This document shows positions 5,769 through 63,999 of a stretch of DNA of 64,000 bases, in pieces. The translations under genes were made by a program, and so were the position numbers. Location: NCBI RefSeq assembly GCF_039830195.1, contig NZ_JBDODG010000007.1, positions 4,638 to 68,637 of the forward strand, read 5' to 3'. This stretch comes from Acetobacterium sp. GTDB taxonomy: Bacteria; Bacillota; Clostridia; Eubacteriales; Eubacteriaceae. Numbering within the stretch: the first letter of the stretch is position 1; each line of letters opens with the position of its first letter. The notes below the pieces were generated by a model, which was not told the origin of the DNA, did not search any database, and saw nothing but the letters and a program-made list of their open reading frames with translations.

Positions 5769-8099
5769 CTATTCCATTATTTGTTCTTTAATATGATAAT
5801 GCTTGACTGCCCGGGTGCCGCCAATAGCGGTGATGGTGACCACCAGCAGCTGAATGGCGGGACAAATCAGATAGGCTTTCAACGGCTGGATTAATAAGGT
5901 CATTCGCGTTGCCCCCATCGATGACAGCATCAGGCTGAAGATCCCTTCCCCCAGGGTATTGGCCAGCACCGTGCCGATCAGAATCCCAAGACCCTGAATC
6001 ACCAGCAGCCGAATCCCCAACTGGATCCGGATATCCCGGTTGGTCAAGCCAAGCGCTTTTTTGACGGCAATATCGCGGTGCTCCCGGGCCATTACCAGTT
6101 GTAAAAACATCACCGTGACCAGTGCGCTTAACAGTAACGCGATCACCATCGCCGCCGCTTCCACCCGGCTCAGGTTATCAACAATTCCCCCCAGGGTCTG
6201 AGCTATAAAACTGGGTACCGGGGTGACCTTGATTTCCGGCAGCGCCCCCCGCAGTTCGTCAGTTTTGGCCTCAAAGTCAACGCCATCCGCCAAACTCAGA
6301 TACAGAATATAAACCTCTACATCCTCATTGTTAAAATTAATGGCGGCCTTGGCCGTTTTTCCGCCGTAGGTAATATCCTGATAAATTCCGGCGACGGTAA
6401 GCTCCATGGTTTCACCGTCATAGACCACCGCGAGTTTATCGCCAACTTTTTTGCCCAGCTCCCCAGCATTCATTGACGACAAAGCGATTTCGTTTTTGCC
6501 AACCGGCGCCTGTCCGGCCAGATAGACAAGCGGAAAAATCGCTTCATCACCGCTTTCCACCCGGATCTTTGTCTCTTCACCCTGGCTGTTTTCAGCCTGA
6601 ACATAGCCATTTTTATAAATGGCATATTTATCAATATCCGAATCATTTTCCAGTACTGCCAAAACCCGCTCCTGTTGCTGGGTAAGCTGCGGTGAATACT
6701 GAATATCGATCCGGATATCTGCTTCACCCACTCCCATATAGGTAATAAAAGACGGATCCTGAATGGTCTGTTTCATATTCATCGGCAACAGCAGCAAAAA
6801 TGCCGAGAAAATAAAAACCAGTAAGATTACCCGATATTCCCGCCATTTGCAGACCAGTTCCCCCAGGGCGATGGTTAGATTGGAATATTTGAAGCCCGAC
6901 GATGGCAGCGTATAGTGGCCCTCCCGGCGCCGGCCGCCGGAACCCCGAAGCAGTTCTACTACGGTACTGTGGAGATTTTTTTTGACTACCCGATGGCACC
7001 CCCAAGCCACCATCCCGCTTAAGAGCAGCAGGCCGAGAAACGGCAGCCCCCATTTCAGCCCCGGATTGCTTCCCGTTCCACAATAACGGACCACCGCAGC
7101 CGCAAAGAAATTCCCGAAGGGGATAGCACCCAGATAACCGAAGATCCCAGCGACCCCCATCAAGATCAGATACTTCATCTGGTACAGGGTCGCAATGGCT
7201 TTACCCGGAAAACCGATGGCCTTCATCTCGCCAATGGCTACCTGCTCATCAGCCATGGTGGCCCGGATAATAAACGACAGACAGAGCATTGCCATAAAAA
7301 TCAACAGCAGGCTGATAACGATGATGATCATCGCCACCAGGCCATAAGAAAAGACATTGAATAAATTCAGTAGATCAGCCGTGATGTCCACCCCATTGGC
7401 GGGCAGCTTAGCAGCCGCGTAGGCTTGCGAAATAACCCCGCTATCGACCCCTTCTTTTAATAGAAATTCAAAGCTGTACTCCCATTCTCCCAACTGCTGA
7501 CTGAGCGCTTCCTGATCAGCCGGGCTGATCAGGAAGCGTTTGGAAGAGGTCATCGCTACATTCATCTGGGCATCCCGGATAATCGTGGCGACCTTAAATT
7601 CTTTCATATAATTATCTTTTTTCAGGGTGATCACATCTCCGGTTGCAACCCCCAGGGTTTCGGCATAATAAACCGGCACCCCAATCTCCCCGTCCTTAAC
7701 CGTGGCGATCTGGTTATCCATATCCAGCAGATAATCAAAGCCCTGATTCTGAACTACAAAGCTGTTATCCATCAGCACCTTTTCCAGGGTTTCGCCCTGA
7801 TAGACGATGTTGGCATTATGAATCGTCAGCATCCTGACGGTCAGAAAATCGGCAATGCCGTCCTGGCTTGCCACAAAACCTTCCAGGGCGGCGGCTTGAT
7901 ACTCGCCCTTATGCATCTGCAGATAATCCGGCGGCAGTGCCTTGTGGTTAAGCTCGTCATAGGCGGAGATCATCGTGCCCGCCACCCGCAGTCCGCCGGC
8001 CATCAGCAGTGCCGCCATGATCAGAAAAACGGTCAGTGCCGTGGTAATAGCCGGATTTCGCTTAAAGTCCTTGCGGACAAGATTCAGTAAAAGTTTCAT
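5769..8099 (-). CDS. FtsX-like ABC permease (duplicated architecture)
   Basis: Two sets of TM segments with large loops; IGEMKAIGF and IAVKKALGL motifs; RBS GGAGG before ATG 8099. Confidence 0.9.
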   Translation of the reverse strand: MKLLLNLVRKDFKRNPAITTALTVFLIMAALLMAGGLRVAGTMISAYDELNHKALPPDYLQMHKGEYQAAALEGFVASQDGIADFLTVRMLTIHNANIVYQGETLEKVLMDNSFVVQNQGFDYLLDMDNQIATVKDGEIGVPVYYAETLGVATGDVITLKKDNYMKEFKVATIIRDAQMNVAMTSSKRFLISPADQEALSQQLGEWEYSFEFLLKEGVDSGVISQAYAAAKLPANGVDITADLLNLFNVFSYGLVAMIIIVISLLLIFMAMLCLSFIIRATMADEQVAIGEMKAIGFPGKAIATLYQMKYLILMGVAGIFGYLGAIPFGNFFAAAVVRYCGTGSNPGLKWGLPFLGLLLLSGMVAWGCHRVVKKNLHSTVVELLRGSGGRRREGHYTLPSSGFKYSNLTIALGELVCKWREYRVILLVFIFSAFLLLLPMNMKQTIQDPSFITYMGVGEADIRIDIQYSPQLTQQQERVLAVLENDSDIDKYAIYKNGYVQAENSQGEETKIRVESGDEAIFPLVYLAGQAPVGKNEIALSSMNAGELGKKVGDKLAVVYDGETMELTVAGIYQDITYGGKTAKAAINFNNEDVEVYILYLSLADGVDFEAKTDELRGALPEIKVTPVPSFIAQTLGGIVDNLSRVEAAAMVIALLLSALVTVMFLQLVMAREHRDIAVKKALGLTNRDIRIQLGIRLLVIQGLGILIGTVLANTLGEGIFSLMLSSMGATRMTLLIQPLKAYLICPAIQLLVVTITAIGGTRAVKHYHIKEQIME

Positions 8100-9219
8100 T
8101 AGTAACCTCCTTCTCTTCCAGGGTTCTGACACTTTTTAAGCGGGCTGCCACCAGCCCGGCCACGGCCAGACTGATTCCGGTAATGATGATCAGCAGAGCA
8201 TTGCCGCGGCCAACCCCAGCACCGATTACTGTGCCAATGCATGTCGCCAACGCGGTATTACCTTGCATCAAGGGTTCAAAGACCAGATCTGCTAAAATGC
8301 CGGCCGCGATAAAGGCCAGGATATAACCCATCTGAGTAATCAAACTGATCAGACCAAAGGCCCGACCCTGAACGCGATTATCCAGATTGGCGCGAATCAG
8401 CACCTCGGCCCCAATCTGAATGGCCGGCATAAAGACAAACATCAAAAATCCAAAGCCAGCGATCAAAACCAGATTTTCACTGACCCCAATCAGAGCCATA
8501 AAAACTCCACAGCCAACCAACCCAAGCGACAACATCCGCAGATAGGATTTTGGCTGCTTGACCATACTGATGACGATGCTTCCGGCCATCATCCCCAGGG
8601 CAATAACAGTTGTCAGAATGCCTAGCTCCCGTTCCCCGGCAATGGCCAGAACCAGGGGCTTACTTAACATCTGCACAAACCCCAGACAGAAGGTGGCGAT
8701 CGTCATCGTCATGATCATCGTCATGATCCCCTTTTTGCCCCGGATGGCGCTGATGCCTTCACTGATTTCACGGCAAAAAACCGAACTGGTCGCTGCGTTT
8801 TTTTTGCTGACCAACCCTTTTCTGACAAATGCGATGATCAGAACCGTAGTGAAAAAAGTCACCATATCCAGCATGATCAGGGTGCCGACTGTTGTCACTT
8901 GTAGCATCAGACCGGCTATGGCTGGGGAAATCAGCAGTTTGGCACTTCCCGCCAGCTGAACCATACCGCCGGCCCGGGCAAAGTCTTCGGCCAAAACCCC
9001 TCCCACCGGGGCCAGCATGATCGCGGGCAGAAAGGCGCAGATGGCAAAAATGCCGGTGGCGCCGACCGAACCGGTTAGCTTTAAAATATAGATCGCCAAG
9101 CCAAAATCCGTCAGGCCGCTACCAATGCTGGAGATAAAGGCGCCAACCACCAGGACCATAAATTTTTTCATGGCAGTATTCTGTTTTGCGATACCCTTAA
9201 TTGTCTGTTGTTGTTTCAT
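8062..9219 (-). CDS. MFS transporter with apparent in-frame internal deletion (possibly non-functional)
   Basis: SSIGSG TM1 and QGRAFG motifs present; motif A is cut (GGVLA|EDFARAGG) and the TM3-TM4 region is missing. Confidence 0.75.
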   Translation of the reverse strand: MKQQQTIKGIAKQNTAMKKFMVLVVGAFISSIGSGLTDFGLAIYILKLTGSVGATGIFAICAFLPAIMLAPVGGVLAEDFARAGGMVQLAGSAKLLISPAIAGLMLQVTTVGTLIMLDMVTFFTTVLIIAFVRKGLVSKKNAATSSVFCREISEGISAIRGKKGIMTMIMTMTIATFCLGFVQMLSKPLVLAIAGERELGILTTVIALGMMAGSIVISMVKQPKSYLRMLSLGLVGCGVFMALIGVSENLVLIAGFGFLMFVFMPAIQIGAEVLIRANLDNRVQGRAFGLISLITQMGYILAFIAAGILADLVFEPLMQGNTALATCIGTVIGAGVGRGNALLIIITGISLAVAGLVAARLKSVRTLEEKEVTNETFTESCPQGL

Positions 9220-19377: not shown

Positions 19378-19404
19378 ATGACAAACAAAACGTCGCCTTG
19401 TCAT
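19378..19404. repeat. 27-bp dispersed palindromic repeat, copy A
   Basis: ATGACAAACAAAACGTCGCCTTGTCAT; 23/27 identical to the reverse complement of the 60100-60126 copy. Confidence 0.75.
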
Positions 19405-22275: not shown

Positions 22276-22311
22276 TTGACAAATCAGCTATATAGCGTTA
22301 CTATATAGCTG
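22276..22311 (+). promoter_or_regulatory. padR promoter with overlapping inverted repeat
   Basis: TTGACA (22276), 17 bp, TACTAT; CAGCTATATAG-N5-CTATATAGCTG at 22285-22311. Confidence 0.7.
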
Positions 22312-22332: not shown

Positions 22333-22674
22333 ATGGAGGTGATTATCCTGGAAAACTTAACGGAGATGTTCAAAGGCCTGCTTGAGGGCTGTGTCCTTGA
22401 GATTATTAGTGGCGGCGAAACCTATGGCTATAAAATCACGCGGCGATTGAATGCGCTAGGCTTTACCGATGTTGTCGATGGAACGATCTACACCATTTTG
22501 GTGCGGCTTGAAAAGAATAACCTCGTCGATATCGAGAAGAAACCGTCCGATATGGGGCCACCGCGCAAGTTTTATGTGCTCAACGACGCGGGACGCAGAG
22601 AACTGCAGCAGTTCTGGGAAAAATGGGCGTTCGTATCATCAAAAATATACGAGTTAAAGGAGACCAAACCATGA
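22333..22674 (+). CDS. PadR-family regulator (true start possibly CTG 22348)
   Basis: KGLLEGCVLEII, YGYKI, GTIYTILVRLEK, GPPRKFY. Confidence 0.92.
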   Translation: MEVIILENLTEMFKGLLEGCVLEIISGGETYGYKITRRLNALGFTDVVDGTIYTILVRLEKNNLVDIEKKPSDMGPPRKFYVLNDAGRRELQQFWEKWAFVSSKIYELKETKP

Positions 22675-23024
22675 CTTTTTGGGAAAAAATTACCGGTAAT
22701 GACATGACTAAAGAATTGCAGATTTTTGAATCCCGGGCCCAAAAGCTGCCGAAAGATTATCAGATTGTTTATAAAGAGATTCAAAAATATCTCTTTAAGG
22801 TCGGTCCGGTTGAGCTAACCGAGGGAACGGAATTGCTCTCGGGGATTGTCGATCTTTTTGAAGACGGCGTGGCTCTGGGGAAAGGCGTACTCGAAGTGAC
22901 CGGCCGTGACGTAGCGGCTTTCTGTGACGATCTAATCAAAGATTCAAAAACATACGCGGACATCTACCAAGCATCAGTTGCTCAAGAAGTCAATCAGGCC
23001 ATGAAAAAGATTACGAAAATCTAA
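22671..23024 (+). CDS. DUF1048-family protein (apparent chimera of two paralogs)
   Basis: LPKDYQIVYKEIQKYL, DLFEDG, VTGRDVAAFCDDL; ATGA overlap with padR. Confidence 0.85.
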   Translation: MTFWEKITGNDMTKELQIFESRAQKLPKDYQIVYKEIQKYLFKVGPVELTEGTELLSGIVDLFEDGVALGKGVLEVTGRDVAAFCDDLIKDSKTYADIYQASVAQEVNQAMKKITKI

Positions 23025-23154
23025 AAGCGGCAAAAGCGATACCTCATAATCCCCTTAACGCAACCAATGCTGACATTTTTTGTGCCATTATGTTAACATC
23101 AATTGATGGATGTCATTGCCAAAACCTGCTAAAATAGGCACAGGTGGTGAAAAT

Positions 23155-27676: not shown

Positions 27677-27691
27677 ATGACGAAGGGACGT
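27677..27691. repeat. Half-copy of the 27-bp repeat at the left edge of the GC-richer island
   Basis: ATGACGAAGGGACGT resembles ATGACAAGGGGGACGT. Confidence 0.4.
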
Positions 27692-27827
27692 ATGGGACCT
27701 GTATCTTGCTGTTTCTTTAGATACCTTGGATGAACTTCAGATAGAAATCATCTGCGCTAGTGGTACCATATCGCAACGCACACTGAATACGGAAAACTAA
27801 AACCACATCCAAATTAGCCTTTTATTT

Positions 27828-36213: not shown

Positions 36214-36237
36214 ATGACGCGTAGACGTTGTTGTTTG
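36214..36237. repeat. Degenerate copy of the 27-bp repeat
   Basis: ATGACGCGTAGACGTTGTTGTTTG vs ATGACAAGGCGACGTTTTGTTTG. Confidence 0.45.
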
Positions 36238-57129: not shown

Positions 57130-57353
57130 TATCACCACTTCTTTCGTTTCACTCAAAGCCCACGCGACCTGAAACAACTTGTCATCTGTGATGGCATAAC
57201 CAACTAAGCGACACAAAGTCATTCCCAAATCGAAACGCCAATTTTCTTTACATTTCCCTCTCCAGCCCTTATACTCAACATATGTCCATTTTACAGGCAT
57301 TTAAACAATGTTTTCCGGATGTAATCGCACATTATGATCGAGAGGTAAAAAAC

Positions 57354-59670: not shown

Positions 59671-59697
59671 ATGACAAACGAAACGCTGCCGAGTCAT
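59671..59697. repeat. 27-bp dispersed repeat, copy B
   Basis: ATGACAAACGAAACGCTGCCGAGTCAT. Confidence 0.8.
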
Positions 59698-59712
59698 ATT
59701 CTAACTTATCGT

Positions 59713-60087
59713 TCACTTACTCATGGCAAACTGATATGCTTCTTTAATCCAGTTCACGAGTTCCAGATCAATTTCATTTTTATCCTGGATTATTACATGA
59801 TGCGTCCATCTGTTTGGATATGGTTCCGCAACTTCCACAATTCGCGGTGATTCAAGGCGATAGGATAGTCCGAATGATACAATGATATAAATATCCGGAC
59901 GATTTTTCATCGTGCGGATCGGTAACCATACAAACGCAAATTGGTGCTTGTTGGAAAAAGAAATCTGTGATTTATGAATCTTTATCCGAACATCAGGGTA
60001 TTCGGCCAGTACTTTTTCTGCAAACATTTTATACAATGGCAATGCCTGAGGCATCTTAGCAAAAAATAAACCCGTTTCGATATCCAT
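59713..60087 (-). CDS. DUF5655-like protein
   Basis: KSQISF, PYPNRWTHHVII, IDLELVNWIKEAY; RBS GGAGG before ATG 60087. Confidence 0.8.
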   Translation of the reverse strand: MDIETGLFFAKMPQALPLYKMFAEKVLAEYPDVRIKIHKSQISFSNKHQFAFVWLPIRTMKNRPDIYIIVSFGLSYRLESPRIVEVAEPYPNRWTHHVIIQDKNEIDLELVNWIKEAYQFAMSK

Positions 60088-60099
60088 CTTTACCTCCGA

Positions 60100-60126
60100 A
60101 TGACAAGGGGGCGTTTCGTATGTCAT
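60100..60126. repeat. 27-bp dispersed repeat, copy C (inverted relative to B)
   Basis: ATGACAAGGGGGCGTTTCGTATGTCAT; reverse complement is 22/27 identical to copy B. Confidence 0.8.
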
Positions 60127-60178
60127 ACTCGTCACTTCACTGCCGACTTTTTTTCAAGTATATCACAGCTTGATGGGC

Positions 60179-60196
60179 ATGACAAAAAAACATCCC
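60179..60196. repeat. Partial copy E of the 27-bp repeat
   Basis: ATGACAAAAAAACATCCC vs ATGACAAACGAAACGTCCC. Confidence 0.55.
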
Positions 60197-60263
60197 GGTG
60201 GCATATGCGAAATTCATTACTGATTAGAACTGTTACTTTTTTCTGTTTGCTCACAAAGACATA

Positions 60264-60314
60264 TTGACATAATCGACACGCGTGTTTATAATATTAATCG
60301 ACACGTGTGTCGAT
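60264..60314 (+). promoter_or_regulatory. Consensus SigA promoter with two TetR operators
   Basis: TTGACA (60264), 17 bp, TATAAT (60287); ATCGACACGCGTGTTTAT and ATCGACAC-GT-GTGTCGAT. Confidence 0.85.
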
Positions 60315-60335
60315 TACGGAATGGAGAAATGGTGT

Positions 60336-60908
60336 ATGACTGCAAAAAAAGAACGCACGCGAGATATGATTTTGGAGGCGACATACGGTCTCTTTGCAAA
60401 GAATGGCTTTAATAAAGTTACCATGAAGGATGTTTGTGAAGCAACAGCTTTAAGTAGAGGTGGCTTGTATAGTCATTTTCCGGGAACAAAGGAAATCTTT
60501 GAAGCGATCCTTGAAAAGCTAAATCAGAAGGAGGAAATGAATTTTACGAAGGAAATGATGGCAGGCCTTCCAGCAACAGAAATTCTAAGCAGAGCCCTCA
60601 ACTTAATGGAGGATGAAATGAAGCGTTCAGAAGATTCTTTAAGCCTTGCCATGTATGAATATGCCGGAACCATCGATCAAGACTTAATGAATCATTTCAA
60701 TACGATTGGCGAAAAAAAATGGACTGACTTAATCGAATATGGGATTAAGCGCGGTGAATTCAAGCAAGTAGATGTTTATGAGATTGTCAATGTGATTTTG
60801 TATGTATATCAGGGCGTTCGCATGTGGAGCCGTATTGTTACAATGCCACCGGATACATTCAGGTCAATTACCTCCCATATAGAAAAACAGCTAATAAAGG
60901 AGCATTAA
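60336..60908 (+). CDS. TetR/AcrR-family regulator
   Basis: ILEATYGLFAKNGFNKVTMKDVCEATALSRGGLYSHF. Confidence 0.92.
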   Translation: MTAKKERTRDMILEATYGLFAKNGFNKVTMKDVCEATALSRGGLYSHFPGTKEIFEAILEKLNQKEEMNFTKEMMAGLPATEILSRALNLMEDEMKRSEDSLSLAMYEYAGTIDQDLMNHFNTIGEKKWTDLIEYGIKRGEFKQVDVYEIVNVILYVYQGVRMWSRIVTMPPDTFRSITSHIEKQLIKEH

Positions 60909-60912
60909 GATT

Positions 60913-62055
60913 ATGGAATTTATTACCGAGAGATTGATCTTACGACCTTGGCAGGAGAGCGATGCCGAGCGTCTTTTTGAATACGCAAAGGATCCTGAAG
61001 TGGGACCGATTGCCGGTTGGCCGGTCCATACCAGTGTCGAAAACAGTCTTGATATTATCCGAAATGTTTTATCTGTTGATGAAACCTATGCCGTTTGCTT
61101 AAAGGATGATAACAAGGTAATTGGCAGTATCGGACTTATTCCACCGATGCAGTCGCATACAAAAGCTGCCGCAGACGAAATTGAAATCGGATATTGGCTA
61201 GGCATGCCGTTTTGGGGAAATGGGTATATTCCTGAAGCTGTCAAAAGACTTCAGCAACATGCTTTTGAAGATCTTGGGTGTAATGCCATGTGGTGCGGCT
61301 ATTATGATGGAAATGAAAAATCAAAACGCTGTCAGGAAAAGTGTGGGTTTATCTATCATCATACTGAAGAAAACAAGCCCTGTGCACTCATGGGAGATGT
61401 TAGAAAAGAGCATTTCACCCGGCTTACAAAAGAAGCTTGGGCGATAAACGAACAAAAGAAACCGGTGGTTCTATTTGTCCACGGAAAGGGTGGATCCGCA
61501 ACTGAAGCAGACCATTATCGTAAATTGTTTCCTGAACATGAGGTTGTCGGATTTGATTATCAGGCGGAAACTCCCTGGGATTGTATCAATGAATTTCAGG
61601 CACAAGCAGATGCATTGTTGTTAGAGTCTGAAAGCATCATACTTGTTGCCCATAGCATCGGGGCATTCTTTGTGATGCATGCTTTATCAGAGAAGCAGAT
61701 TCATAGAGCTTATTTCATATCGCCGATTGTTGATATGGAGAAATTGATTTCTGATATGATGTTGTGGGCCAATGTTACAGATCAGGATCTTCAGGAGAAA
61801 AAGATTATTGAGACTTCCTTTGGGGAAATGCTATCTTGGGACTACCTTTCTTGGGTGCGGGCGCATCCGATTAAGTGGAATGTACCGACAGAAATTTTGT
61901 ACGGCGGGCAGGATAATCTGACATCGCGAGATACGATTGATGCATTTGCTAAAAATCATGGCGCTAATCTGACAATTATGGAGGACGGCGAGCATTGGTT
62001 CCATACCGAGGAACAGATGACATTTGTGGATGCCTGGATAAAAAACCGCAGTTAA
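60913..62055 (+). CDS. RimJ/RimL-type GNAT fused to an alpha/beta hydrolase domain
   Basis: TERLILRP, EIGYWLG...WGNGY, GNEKSKRCQEKCGF; then FVHGKGG, AHSIG, GEHWFH. Confidence 0.85.
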   Translation: MEFITERLILRPWQESDAERLFEYAKDPEVGPIAGWPVHTSVENSLDIIRNVLSVDETYAVCLKDDNKVIGSIGLIPPMQSHTKAAADEIEIGYWLGMPFWGNGYIPEAVKRLQQHAFEDLGCNAMWCGYYDGNEKSKRCQEKCGFIYHHTEENKPCALMGDVRKEHFTRLTKEAWAINEQKKPVVLFVHGKGGSATEADHYRKLFPEHEVVGFDYQAETPWDCINEFQAQADALLLESESIILVAHSIGAFFVMHALSEKQIHRAYFISPIVDMEKLISDMMLWANVTDQDLQEKKIIETSFGEMLSWDYLSWVRAHPIKWNVPTEILYGGQDNLTSRDTIDAFAKNHGANLTIMEDGEHWFHTEEQMTFVDAWIKNRS

Positions 62056-62060
62056 ATCAG

Positions 62061-62115
62061 ATGATCAGGGGAGAACCTCCCCTTGTGACGACAAGGGGGA
62101 CGTTTCGTTTGTCAT
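62061..62115. repeat. Back-to-back doublet of the 27-bp repeat (copies D' and D)
   Basis: ATGATCAGGGGAGAACCTCCCCTTGTGA joined to ACGACAAGGGGGACGTTTCGTTTGTCAT, between convergent genes. Confidence 0.75.
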
Positions 62116-62124
62116 AAAGCAATC

Positions 62125-62769
62125 TCACTGGATAATCGAATGGCTGTGAATAAAAAATTCTTCCTGACTGGGCTGATACTTTTTCTCCATACTTTCCAAA
62201 CCCGCGTCAAAGCGCTCCGCTTCTTGTTCATCAATCTCGAATACAGGGCTTTGATGGTAAACCCATTTTCTTCCATCCAAGGCTCCTGGTTTGAGCTCTT
62301 TTACCATCATTGCCGTCGGATAGGTCCCGTTTTCAAGACAGATATTATATCTCTTGCAACTCTTAAAGCCGCGGCTTACGTAATTATTCGGATTCCCAAA
62401 TATTACAATCACATCATAACCAAGTGCGGCAGCCTGTTCAAAGGAATACTCGATTAGTTTTTTTCCATATCCCTTTCGCTGATACTCTGGCAAAATGCAA
62501 ACGGGCCCGAACGTCAGGATATCTTTTTCTGCCCCGGACTCATCAATCAGTTTTGCTTTCGTATACATGATATTCCCGATGATCTGATTATCAACTTCAA
62601 TCACCAGATCCAACTCTGGCAAAAAATCTTTGTGGGATCGCATCACGTGAACCAAATAGTGTTCATTACACCCCGGAATATATAAATTCCAAAAAGATTT
62701 CCTGGTGAGTTCTTCTACTCGCTGATAATCGCTTTCTTCTTCATTCCTAATCTTAATTACTTTGTCCAT
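62125..62769 (-). CDS. GNAT N-acetyltransferase (YhbS-like)
   Basis: LTFGPVCILPEYQRKGYGKKLI, VIFGNPNNYVSRGF. Confidence 0.9.
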   Translation of the reverse strand: MDKVIKIRNEEESDYQRVEELTRKSFWNLYIPGCNEHYLVHVMRSHKDFLPELDLVIEVDNQIIGNIMYTKAKLIDESGAEKDILTFGPVCILPEYQRKGYGKKLIEYSFEQAAALGYDVIVIFGNPNNYVSRGFKSCKRYNICLENGTYPTAMMVKELKPGALDGRKWVYHQSPVFEIDEQEAERFDAGLESMEKKYQPSQEEFFIHSHSIIQ

Positions 62770-62810
62770 TTATATCACCATTCCTTTCATTCTTCTTTAA
62801 CGGATTCTCC

Positions 62811-62825
62811 ACGTCTCTTTGTCAT
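62811..62825. repeat. Half-copy G of the 27-bp repeat
   Basis: ACGTCTCTTTGTCAT vs ACGTTTCGTTTGTCAT. Confidence 0.5.
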
Positions 62826-62836
62826 GTTCTGCCTAT

Positions 62837-62917
62837 TTAGCAATTCCAGTTGATTTTCGCCGGGTTCGGTTCATTCACCGCTTGAGCCACCGGATTTCCC
62901 GCTACATCACGGGCAGC
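62837..62917 (-). pseudogene. Internally deleted duplicate of the 3' end of the Imm5-like gene
   Basis: 62844-62874 matches 63608-63638 (29/31) and 62878-62917 matches 63831-63870 (36/40). Confidence 0.9.
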
Positions 62918-62926
62918 GACTTTTTA

Positions 62927-63406
62927 TTATAGGCGATTGATTATCGTCGCAACAAATTTCTCAACACCTTGATCAATCGTATTGATCAAGAGCGCCTGAT
63001 CTTCAAAATCAGGTGTGCATGTCAATATCCATTCTGCGATAGCATCCTGATTATTTTTATCATGAAATACATTTATTTCATCTGAAAAACTATCAAGTAT
63101 CGATTCATGTGCCCTGGCAATATCGCGGTTCCGCGCCGAAAGCCATACCTCAAAGGACCCTTTTTCATGTAAATACACAATCGCAATTTTTAAACCCTGA
63201 TCTTTTAATGGCTTTGTACTCAAAGAGAAATAAGACATATCCAGATATCCCTGATAGATGCTGCTGACATCGTAGTGGGGGTATTTCTTAATAAAAGCGG
63301 CTCTTAATTTACCCATAAACGTCAATATCCCTTTGTATGCAATTTGGATTTCACCTTGCTGCAACTGCTGCGTATACCCCGCTACTAGTTTATTAAGCGT
63401 TTTCAT
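62927..63406 (-). CDS. Conserved hypothetical protein (DUF7000-like)
   Basis: YQGYLDMSYF, GLKIAIVYLHE, FEVWLSARNR; RBS GGAGG. Confidence 0.75.
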   Translation of the reverse strand: MKTLNKLVAGYTQQLQQGEIQIAYKGILTFMGKLRAAFIKKYPHYDVSSIYQGYLDMSYFSLSTKPLKDQGLKIAIVYLHEKGSFEVWLSARNRDIARAHESILDSFSDEINVFHDKNNQDAIAEWILTCTPDFEDQALLINTIDQGVEKFVATIINRL

Positions 63407-63445
63407 TCTTTTGCCTCCAACAAATTTTATTTAGCTGTTTTGTCA

Positions 63446-63508
63446 TTATCCAGTCGTGCCAAAAAGCAATAATGCCATACACATTAAACTAATCGCCACT
63501 CGTTTCAT
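63446..63508 (-). pseudogene. Signal-peptide-only stub MKRVAISLMCMALLLFGTTG*
   Basis: RBS AGGGAG, basic N-region and hydrophobic core; stop abuts ATGACAAAACAGC. Confidence 0.5.
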
Positions 63509-63600: not shown

Positions 63601-63999
63601 TTAACAGTTCCAGTTGATTTTTGCCGGGTTCGTTTCATGCTCCACTACCATGCTGCGCAAAGCGGCTTCGATACGACCGCACTCTGCGGCGGCACATTGT
63701 TCAATTTCATCCCAGCTTGCCGCTGTCCCGAGCTGATCATAGGCGACGGCCAAGGCGCCATAAAAAGCCAAACCGATACAATGCCGGGCGGAATGAATGG
63801 TCGATGCCGATTGACCGATGGCTCTCGCCGCCGCTTGCGCCACCGGATTTCCCTCTGCGTCACGGGCAGCGCCATGGCAGGCAAGGATTTCCTTTTTTGC
63901 CTGGGGCAGTTTAATTGTCCCTGACAACCATTCCCGAGCTGCCTTCAAAGCCTGCTGTGGTCGCAGATCATCCGGGTAGTCCCGCTCCCATAATGGCTG
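63601..63999 (-). CDS. Imm5-like 'putative immunity protein', C-terminal part (runs off window end)
   Basis: DYPDDLRPQQALKAAREW, HGAAR, QAAARAIGQSASTIHSARH. Confidence 0.75.
   Translation of the reverse strand, partial: QPLWERDYPDDLRPQQALKAAREWLSGTIKLPQAKKEILACHGAARDAEGNPVAQAAARAIGQSASTIHSARHCIGLAFYGALAVAYDQLGTAASWDEIEQCAAAECGRIEAALRSMVVEHETNPAKINWNC

Follow-up and report, generated by a model that had tools for sequence, protein, structure and literature searches.

The 64,000-nt stretch of Acetobacterium DNA analyzed here, hereafter the window (C7:4638-68637 of the source genome G000, 3.37 Mb in 46 contigs), contains dispersed 27-bp imperfect palindromes, which we regard, at a probability of about 0.82, as the terminal repeats of small chromosomal elements encoding a Y1 (HUH) nuclease related to the REP (repetitive extragenic palindrome)-associated tyrosine transposases (RAYTs) and carrying a C-terminal tail of probable helix-turn-helix (HTH) type, that is, elements of the TIRYT or 'TIRtron' type. 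By matching published descriptions, the enzyme probably falls within TnpA-Y1 subclass 2.1. By analogy with E. coli TnpA-REP and IS608 TnpA, it would recognize each palindrome as a single-stranded DNA (ssDNA) hairpin with a 6-7 bp stem and a loop carrying GGGGACG(G/T)TTC, and would cut and rejoin DNA near this core. A first-pass annotation of the window had described the palindromes as REP-like sites tied to an HUH or recombinase enzyme encoded elsewhere, and a Y1 gene does lie on another contig, C15; the dispersed palindromes of an acetogen accessory island thereby gain a concrete origin and the predicted HUH partner exists outside the window. In the following, genomes, contigs and extracted loci are designated by G, C and L numbers, respectively.

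The association with a Y1 gene was found both in the source genome and in its relatives. G000 has exactly one Pfam Y1_Tnp (PF01797) gene, at C15:245-1015 on the minus strand, and a GTGACA-armed copy of the palindrome lies ~40 nt 5′ of its start. By overlaying protein matches on motif matches in the sister species, ~20 Y1 homologues were found with inverted copies on both sides at fixed distances, (−) to the left of the gene and (+) to its right, which bears out the suspected flanking of a Y1_Tnp/RAYT gene by the repeat. The flanked loci include the following:

G017:C33, copy at 22298, Y1 gene at 22361-23116, copy at 23126
G004:C5, copy at 80066, Y1 gene at 80094-80846, copy at 80896
G013:C86, G007:C1 (twice) and G024:C4 (twice), further flanked Y1 genes
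G001:C223, flanked Y1 pseudogene

Alignment of 19 Y1 flanks showed that the spacing is fixed and that a −10 box and a ribosome-binding site are common. On the sense strand, the element opens with the left copy, ATGACAyGGGGACGTTTCGTTTGTCAT, followed by a 17-nt spacer, TATACT, and then AGGAGG and ATG, with the left copy placed 37-40 nt 5′ of the Y1 open reading frame (ORF); on the right, a 255-aa gene ending in TGA is followed by ATGACAAACGAAACGTCCCCTTGTCAT, beginning 2-8 nt on. The complete element measures ~0.87 kb, and the GGGG/CCCC-containing halves of both ends point outward. From this anatomy (TTGTCA, 17-nt spacer, TATACT), the −35 box of the Y1 promoter can be identified with the inner arm TTGTCA.

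Other features were also seen around the element ends. Partial tandem copies, consisting of the outer arm plus GGGGAC, are frequent just beyond the terminal repeats (up to 4 units, 11-12-nt period; G000 C33:30991-31060 and loci L021, L023, L026-L030, L065, L072 and L093), and the duplicated unit stops at GGGGAC(G)(T), where two half copies described below break off as well. On C15, a truncated IS1182-family transposase ORF (C15:1076-2092; 338 aa, 331/488 profile positions) stops precisely where the motif copy 5′ of the Y1 gene is located, and no intact IS1182 copy was found in G000. The first 55 nt of C15 are found again at the ends of contigs C13, C17 and C38.

The repeat itself departs clearly from chance. 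A position weight matrix (PWM) was built from 30 copies flanking Y1 genes in the sister species, and genomes were scanned by Hamming distance and PWM; scans with arm-only half-sites gave mostly chance matches, and only sites retaining the central ACGT were kept. The family consensus obtained in this way is the 27-nt form with four Cs given above for the right end, ATGACAAACGAAACGTCCCCTTGTCAT. The consensus proposed in the first-pass annotation thus described a real repeat (0 matches in 100 shuffles), in a 28-nt form that fits the copy at 62088 only. At a PWM score of ≥8, 4 sites were found in the window against 0.05 expected from shuffles, showing that the motif is non-random. Genome-wide, ~13 clear members were identified on five contigs of G000, with the arm variants ATGACA..TGTCAT, GTGACA..TGTCAC and GTGACA..GATGTCTC and a more distant CACAA..TTGTG type. 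A search with the core pattern TGACANNNGAAACRYCCCC, one mismatch allowed, covered 41 genomes, 25 of the same genus and 16 of other genera of the same order: the pattern was present in 24 of the 25 Acetobacterium genomes (G000 included; none in G008) at 1-25 copies per positive genome (7 in G000 by the strict pattern) and was almost missing from the 16 others, and the reversed-pattern control returned ~0 matches. A further arm variant, CACAAAAGAACCGTCCCCTTGTG, occurs in G000 at C34:126768, C34:128019, C15:11814, C15:14095 and C11:45244, and one copy of this variant adjoins a 22-aa N-terminal Y1 remnant (C34:126645-126710). At the housekeeping gene proA (C11:252746-254200), a full copy with GTGACA arms precedes the gene by 47 nt, and a decayed end-pair follows it closely.

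The enzyme resembles TnpA-REP more closely than the transposases of classical IS200-type insertion sequences (ISs). The 256-aa G000 protein matches PF01797 with 48.5 bits and reaches 67.6 bits against NCBIfam NF047646, 'REP-associated tyrosine transposase', under the cutoff of 80; the HUH histidines H64 and H66 and the tyrosine Y122 are invariant among 40 homologues. Searched against PDB sequences, the homologue profile had E. coli TnpA-REP (4ER8) as its sole match (E 3.6e-5), while searching PDB with a single sequence, or Pfam with the C-terminal tail, yielded nothing useful. In the AlphaFold model (mean pLDDT 88), the best Foldseek match was again 4ER8 (TM 0.73 on target, E 2e-7), ahead of the ISDra2, IS608 and IS200 transposases. 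Residues 140-256 form an extra, mostly helical domain in the model (helices 196-254, pLDDT 75-88), and this 110-aa C-terminal extension ends in a conserved SIRQLSRxLGI; its Pfam matches were weak (HTH_23 in 7 and Sigma70_r4_2 in 5 of 40 homologues, none in the G000 protein). Two enzyme subfamilies can be separated, A, comprising the G000 C15 gene and its 74-100% identical relatives, and B, 55-59% identical to A. The arm type of the repeats follows the subfamily, GTGACA with A and ATGACA with B, and the A- and B-type enzymes set against GTGACA- and ATGACA-armed hairpins provide a direct biochemical test set.

The same arrangement recurs far beyond the genus. Among 80 loci encoding Y1 relatives, many distant homologues (38-55% identity) are framed by inverted repeats of 26-30 bp, which lie ~40-70 nt before and 8-30 nt after the gene; the sources are Sporomusa, Tissierellaceae, Syntrophomonadaceae, Pelotomaculum and Bacillus, with two more homologues from metagenome-assembled genomes labeled Acidobacteriota and Chitinophagales, in other phyla. 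The core GGGGACG(G/T)TTC is common to all of these repeats, and the arms differ yet stay complementary (GAGTCA/TGACTC, GGGCAA/TTGCCC, GGGACAA/TTGTCCC, TGCGACA/TGTCGCA and AAGACA/TGTCTT). Across 25 lineages and six arm pairs, 84.7% of cells were paired, compared with 54.5% in shuffles (0/500 reached the observed value), 46 cells were altered on both sides compared with 13 in shuffles, and the covariation score was 0.78 compared with 0.08-0.20 when the partner columns were slid. Folded as ssDNA, the consensus 27-mer gave −5.1 kcal/mol (z −4.1) and a tight end-pair (doublet) −22.5 kcal/mol (z −4.9). Judged from the sequences, the complementary arms are consistent with recognition of an ssDNA hairpin as in 4ER8, and they would fit a duplex-bound dimer too.

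The repeat most likely belongs to an already known, little-studied kind, the RAYT-related TIRYT/TIRtron elements. TIRtrons have been described as RAYT-like genes flanked by terminal inverted repeats (TIRs) of the GGGGWSAS type (Di Nocera, De Gregorio & Rocco 2013, PMC3733652); TnpA-Y1 subclass 2.1 has a C-terminal HTH, and TIRYT has been equated with it (Quentin et al. 2018, PMC6006769); and for Clostridia, Group 1 RAYTs have been reported whose flanking words occur in about a dozen copies (PMC5581495). In common with TIRYTs, the elements described here have a RAYT-like HUH/Y1 gene with a C-terminal extension, here only putatively of HTH type (weak Pfam matches and a helical model), inverted repeats with a GGGG-led motif at fixed distances on both sides of the gene, and moderately abundant extra copies as singles, dimers and clusters. 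Unlike in TIRYTs, each repeat here is a hairpin-capable palindrome whose arms covary across lineages, and, whereas no REP-like sequences were reported for subclass 2.1 by Quentin et al. (PMC6006769), solo copies and REPIN-like end-pairs occur here. The proteobacterial REP/REPIN-RAYT systems (REPtrons) share with these elements the closest solved structure and only PDB profile match, 4ER8, a gene flanked by inverted palindromes, dispersed intergenic copies, some just past stop codons, and inverted doublets that fold as long hairpins (the C15 pairs and at least 7 doublets in G001:C3, described below). They differ in the GTAG/CGTC tag beside the stem, which is not present here (CGTC lies inside the loop core), in copy number (hundreds, above 100 per genome, against tens here) and in the enzyme and host: here a genome carries up to three intact paralogues drawn from several subfamilies, the protein has an additional domain of putative HTH type, and the host is a Gram-positive acetogen. 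A well-resolved Gram-positive example is added to the barely studied TIRYT/subclass-2.1 class, one in which the anatomy of the ends is clear, the loop core is conserved and the arms covary across phyla, REPIN-like pairs occur, and arms match enzyme subfamilies.

Several observations weigh against this assignment. The intact Y1 gene of G000 shows just the copy on its 5′ side, since on the other side comes a second ORF and the contig stops after 244 nt. The core, here GGGGACG(G/T)TTC, deviates at position 7 from the GGGG[AT][CG]A[CG] published for TIRYTs: most repeats read GGGGACGG or GGGGACGT, with G instead of A at this position, and a few read GGGGACAG, which fits the TIR motif. The copy numbers (~13 in G000, at most ~25 by the strict pattern) are far under those of classical REPs. 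As to the hairpin, a 6-bp stem with a 15-nt loop is weak, the arm covariation is modest inside Acetobacterium, and a dimer on duplex DNA would preserve arm complementarity equally.

Within the window, the following copies and the associated promoter were recognized:

19378-19404, plus strand, full solo copy in consensus orientation, intergenic, ATGACAAACAAAACGTCGCCTTGTCAT, PWM 38.6
27677-27703, minus strand, variant copy with right half ACGTCCCTTCGTCAT and a different left arm, TACAGGTCCCAT, backed by comparison
57196-57222, plus strand, degenerate copy ATAACCAACTAAGCGACACAAAGTCAT, PWM 4.3, recognizable by orthology
59671-59697, plus strand, full copy with decayed right arm, ATGACAAACGAAACGCTGCCGAGTCAT, PWM 25.6
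60100-60126, minus strand, full copy, right-end (downstream-type) palindrome of a Y1-less end-pair, ATGACATACGAAACGCCCCCTTGTCAT, PWM 36.0
60157-60185, minus strand, putative orphan Y1 promoter TTGTCA-17-TATACT with upstream TG, 10/12 in the promoter scan, with near-identical sequence 5′ of Y1 in G017
60179-60204, plus strand, degenerate copy, left-end (upstream-type) palindrome of the same end-pair, 60100-60204, ATGACAAAAAAACATCCCGGTGGCAT, PWM 2.9 alone, backed by comparison
62061-62087, plus strand, degenerate copy abutting the one at 62088, outer arm CTCCCCTTGTGAC only retained, read from sequence
62088-62115, minus strand, full copy of 28 nt with five Cs, ATGACAAACGAAACGTCCCCCTTGTCGT, PWM 41.4
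62799-62825, plus strand, right half copy ACGTCTCTTTGTCAT (62811 in the first-pass annotation), similarity ending at the central ACGT

All four full copies that had been reported before, at 19378, 59671, 60100 and 62088, were recovered at the same positions. The degenerate or half copies reported at 60179, 62061, 62811 and 27677 also held up, but those at 36214 (PWM −6) and 63434 (TTTGTCAT only) are indistinguishable from chance by sequence alone. The left arm of the 27677 variant, ACAGGTYCC, is found again at G000 C33:22544 and in G010 (L035:139), and the ortholog of the 57196 copy is a better-preserved ATGACCAACGAAACGACACGATGTCAT in G013 (L031:4032). The copies are, as described previously, all intergenic, of mixed orientation and densely clustered, the cluster spanning 59.6-62.8 kb, and their position and orientation relative to the neighboring genes are heterogeneous and not fixed. 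An Rfam search of the window returned no family.

With respect to the neighboring genes, the nearest ORFs to the 19378 copy lie at 110 nt and 99 nt. The 59671 copy turns its inner side toward the start of a WYL-HTH regulator (~50 nt), the geometry of a left end 5′ of a Y1 gene, and its outer side lies 15 nt beyond the DUF5655 stop; beyond the motif, its alignment to Y1 upstream regions is only weakly similar. The outer arm of the 60100 copy is 2 nt from the DUF5655 ribosome-binding site. The 62061 copy lies 6 nt past the stop of the GNAT-hydrolase gene, the 62088 copy lies 9 nt past the stop of a 214-aa GNAT gene in the geometry of a right end after a Y1 gene, and the 62799 half copy is ~30 nt 5′ of the GNAT start.

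The window copies are of B type (ATGACA arms), while the one intact Y1 gene of G000, on C15, is of A type. Genes of B type are present in G000 only as fragments, one at C21:506-781 (68% identical to the B-type C-terminus, with a motif copy directly after it) and one at C7:68779-68898, just past the window end; thus the window copies are probably orphan ends, now immobile relics. The copies at 19378, 59671 and 62088 are solo ends, and one remnant retains both ends. Positions 60094-60144 match the 3′ flank of Y1 genes in relatives, and positions 60148-60207 match the Y1 5′ flank of G017:C33 at 92%. Read on the minus strand from 60204, the order is a decayed left end, a Y1-type promoter, a deletion, the right end at 60100-60126 and the DUF5655 ribosome-binding site, and by these matches 60100-60204 is recognizable as a gene-less pair of left and right ends from which a deletion appears to have taken out the entire Y1 frame. 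The −35 box of the orphan promoter is the arm of the degenerate 60179 copy and the promoter is aimed at DUF5655, which may be read from it. Given this layout, DUF5655 is flanked by two ends that turn their outward faces toward it and is not part of the element; around Y1 genes the arrangement is reversed. The 62061 and 62088 copies abut by their outer arms and form a terminator-like hairpin (62078-62099) just past the GNAT-hydrolase gene, possibly reused as a terminator after this gene. The 98% match to A. malicum sets in at 62100, within the 62088 copy, of which A. malicum retains only the half ATGACAAACGAAACGT.

Tight inverted end-pairs also exist outside the window. On C15 of G000, the 62-63-nt REPIN-like pairs 6226-6288 and 8141-8202 of the TGACAGGYGTAACGTCCCC variant (doublets C15:6226/6262 and C15:8141/8176) flank a sigma/anti-sigma gene pair, and a sister species (L041, G001:C3:1-19000) carries at least 7 such pairs in 17 kb with the conserved flanks tagggt ... 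cccgggca.

The first-pass annotation had gone further, inferring that an HUH or recombinase enzyme acting in trans inserts and deletes small stress and resistance genes and so builds an integron-like array; such an enzyme would cut within the palindromes, move DNA between copies, and capture, excise and reorder accessory genes. The islands holding copies are indeed plastic, with small miscellaneous genes (GNATs, DUF7000, Imm5-like, DUF1428, DUF1810, DUF1706/DinB, DUF4825, flavodoxin-like and HD), paralogues, gene remnants and varying gene orders. Five consecutive gene junctions at 59.6-62.8 kb bear a copy or a remnant, and the GNAT gene, with a left half at 30 nt on its 5′ side and a right end at 9 nt on its 3′ side, occupies the usual place of a Y1 gene. 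Two half copies end at the central ACGT, one at 62799 in the window and the other in A. malicum (L028:9939) at a boundary of 98%-identity homology, and in many lineages GGGGAC(G)(T) is also where tandem partial copies stop. The gene order varies by species (GNAT-DUF7000 or DUF7000-GNAT), and in G007 ~17 small co-oriented genes form one array.

To relate homology breakpoints to the repeat, 227 homology-block end points in nine island loci were scored for a motif within 20 nt. Of these, 36 (16%) lay near a motif, compared with 8% of intergenic positions (P ~6e-5, the end points not being independent). The predicted coincidence of gene presence/absence breakpoints with the repeat was seen as a 2-fold enrichment, which is partly trivial because the Y1 elements are blocks themselves; the remaining 84% of end points had no motif. 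The junctions of a 6.5-kb strain-specific block, 57628-64180, were likewise free of the motif; this block is missing at the orthologous G013 site (L031:4465-4554) and holds ORF231, WYL, DUF5655, TetR, GNAT-hydrolase, GNAT, DUF7000 and Imm5-like genes. WYL, DUF5655 and TetR-GNAT-hydrolase had no close DNA match in the 40 relatives searched, and an exact-protein look-up of GNAT found one 2.2-kb contig only. Moreover, identity among the Y1 paralogues of one genome is 82-91%, and gene-less derivatives of 460 nt from three species are 69-77% alike, so that near-identical copies and with them any sign of recent movement are missing, and an 'empty site' palindrome with outer half joined to outer half (GGGGACGTCCCC) was found nowhere in the genome. 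The outward-facing sides around DUF5655, the heterogeneous placement of copies and the lack of an intact cognate B-type enzyme in G000 speak against shuffling as well.

The parallel to integrons is similarly partial. Like attC sites, which also function as folded single strands, the repeats are short imperfect palindromes between small, partly co-oriented miscellaneous accessory genes. Unlike in integrons, however, no attC signature (RYYYAAC/GTTRRRY) is visible in the sequence, the enzyme is an HUH nuclease instead of a tyrosine recombinase, most junctions have no copy, and the orientation is mixed; no recombinase was present among the annotated ORFs of 58.6-63.4 kb, where no search aimed at IntI was made. 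Weighing the evidence on both sides, we consider active cassette shuffling unlikely, which cautions against treating the array as an integron analogue.

A related and similarly doubtful idea is that the TIRYT-type ends could act as portable expression or exchange modules, in which the left end with its promoter and ribosome-binding site and the right end might swap the Y1 gene for cargo, or pick up neighbors via an alternative end. The candidate cases would be GNAT, which has a left half 30 nt ahead of it and a right end 9 nt behind it, and WYL, ~50 nt after a copy of left-end type, and the recurrent breaks in the core, GGGGACG^T, would then mark the cut site of the enzyme. If this improbable scheme were true, the small accessory genes in the islands of Acetobacterium would turn over slowly, in an integron-like way, through the action of an HUH nuclease.

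Less probable still is that the palindrome serves mainly as a duplex operator or promoter module, bound by the HTH tail of Y1 or by a host regulator, with the dispersed copies forming one regulon. Every Y1 promoter takes its −35 box, 17 nt ahead of TATACT, from the inner arm, a palindromic element is combined with an HTH-like C-terminal domain in the protein, and the tandem 11-nt partial repeats of the outer arm resemble iterons. However, the second copy always lies just past the Y1 stop codon, and solo copies are found at both 3′ and 5′ ends as well as between convergent genes, at distances to gene starts that are not fixed; the fixed distance to promoters expected of a transcription-factor site, an objection raised beforehand against the repeat, was thus not observed. 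Tight inverted end-pairs and clusters exist, the conserved core is asymmetric and retained across phyla while the arms change compensatorily, and the neighboring genes have no common function, all of which makes an operator very unlikely. An ordinary IS200-type IS, the copies being the ends or scars of an active element that often transposes into the island, is hardly credible: the gene matches Pfam Y1_Tnp, some species have several paralogues per genome, and decayed copies and remnants are common, but the 256-aa protein with its extra domain is nearer to TnpA-REP than to the TnpA of IS200, IS608 or ISDra2, the ends are inverted repeats instead of same-strand subterminal hairpins, no identical copies exist within a genome, and copies cluster in few islands.

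With the IS200/IS605 family and its gene-less derivatives (palindrome-associated transposable elements, PATEs), the TIRYT-type elements do share the single-domain HUH/Y1 catalytic core and non-autonomous derivatives retaining both ends; inverted ends, a larger RAYT-like protein and the lack of identical multicopy insertions set them apart. A sigma-70 promoter spanning the whole palindrome was ruled out by the conserved core in the spacer and by the copies after stop codons, and an ECF-type (extracytoplasmic function) promoter, a solitary CRISPR repeat and Tn3 or IS21 ends were dropped once the flanking Y1 genes had been found.

Further observations concern the Imm5-like genes of the island. 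Positions 62832-62918 of the window are an internally deleted remnant of an Imm5-like (PF21805) gene, and its paralogue, which is intact, begins at 63601 and extends beyond the end of the window. Imm5-like, DUF7000 and GNAT genes recur as a shuffled trio in relatives. In A. malicum NZ_WJBE01000014 (L028:11540-14459), the Imm5-like gene is interrupted by a 2.9-kb two-ORF IS (527 aa and 262 aa) with terminal inverted repeats, which is missing in G000.

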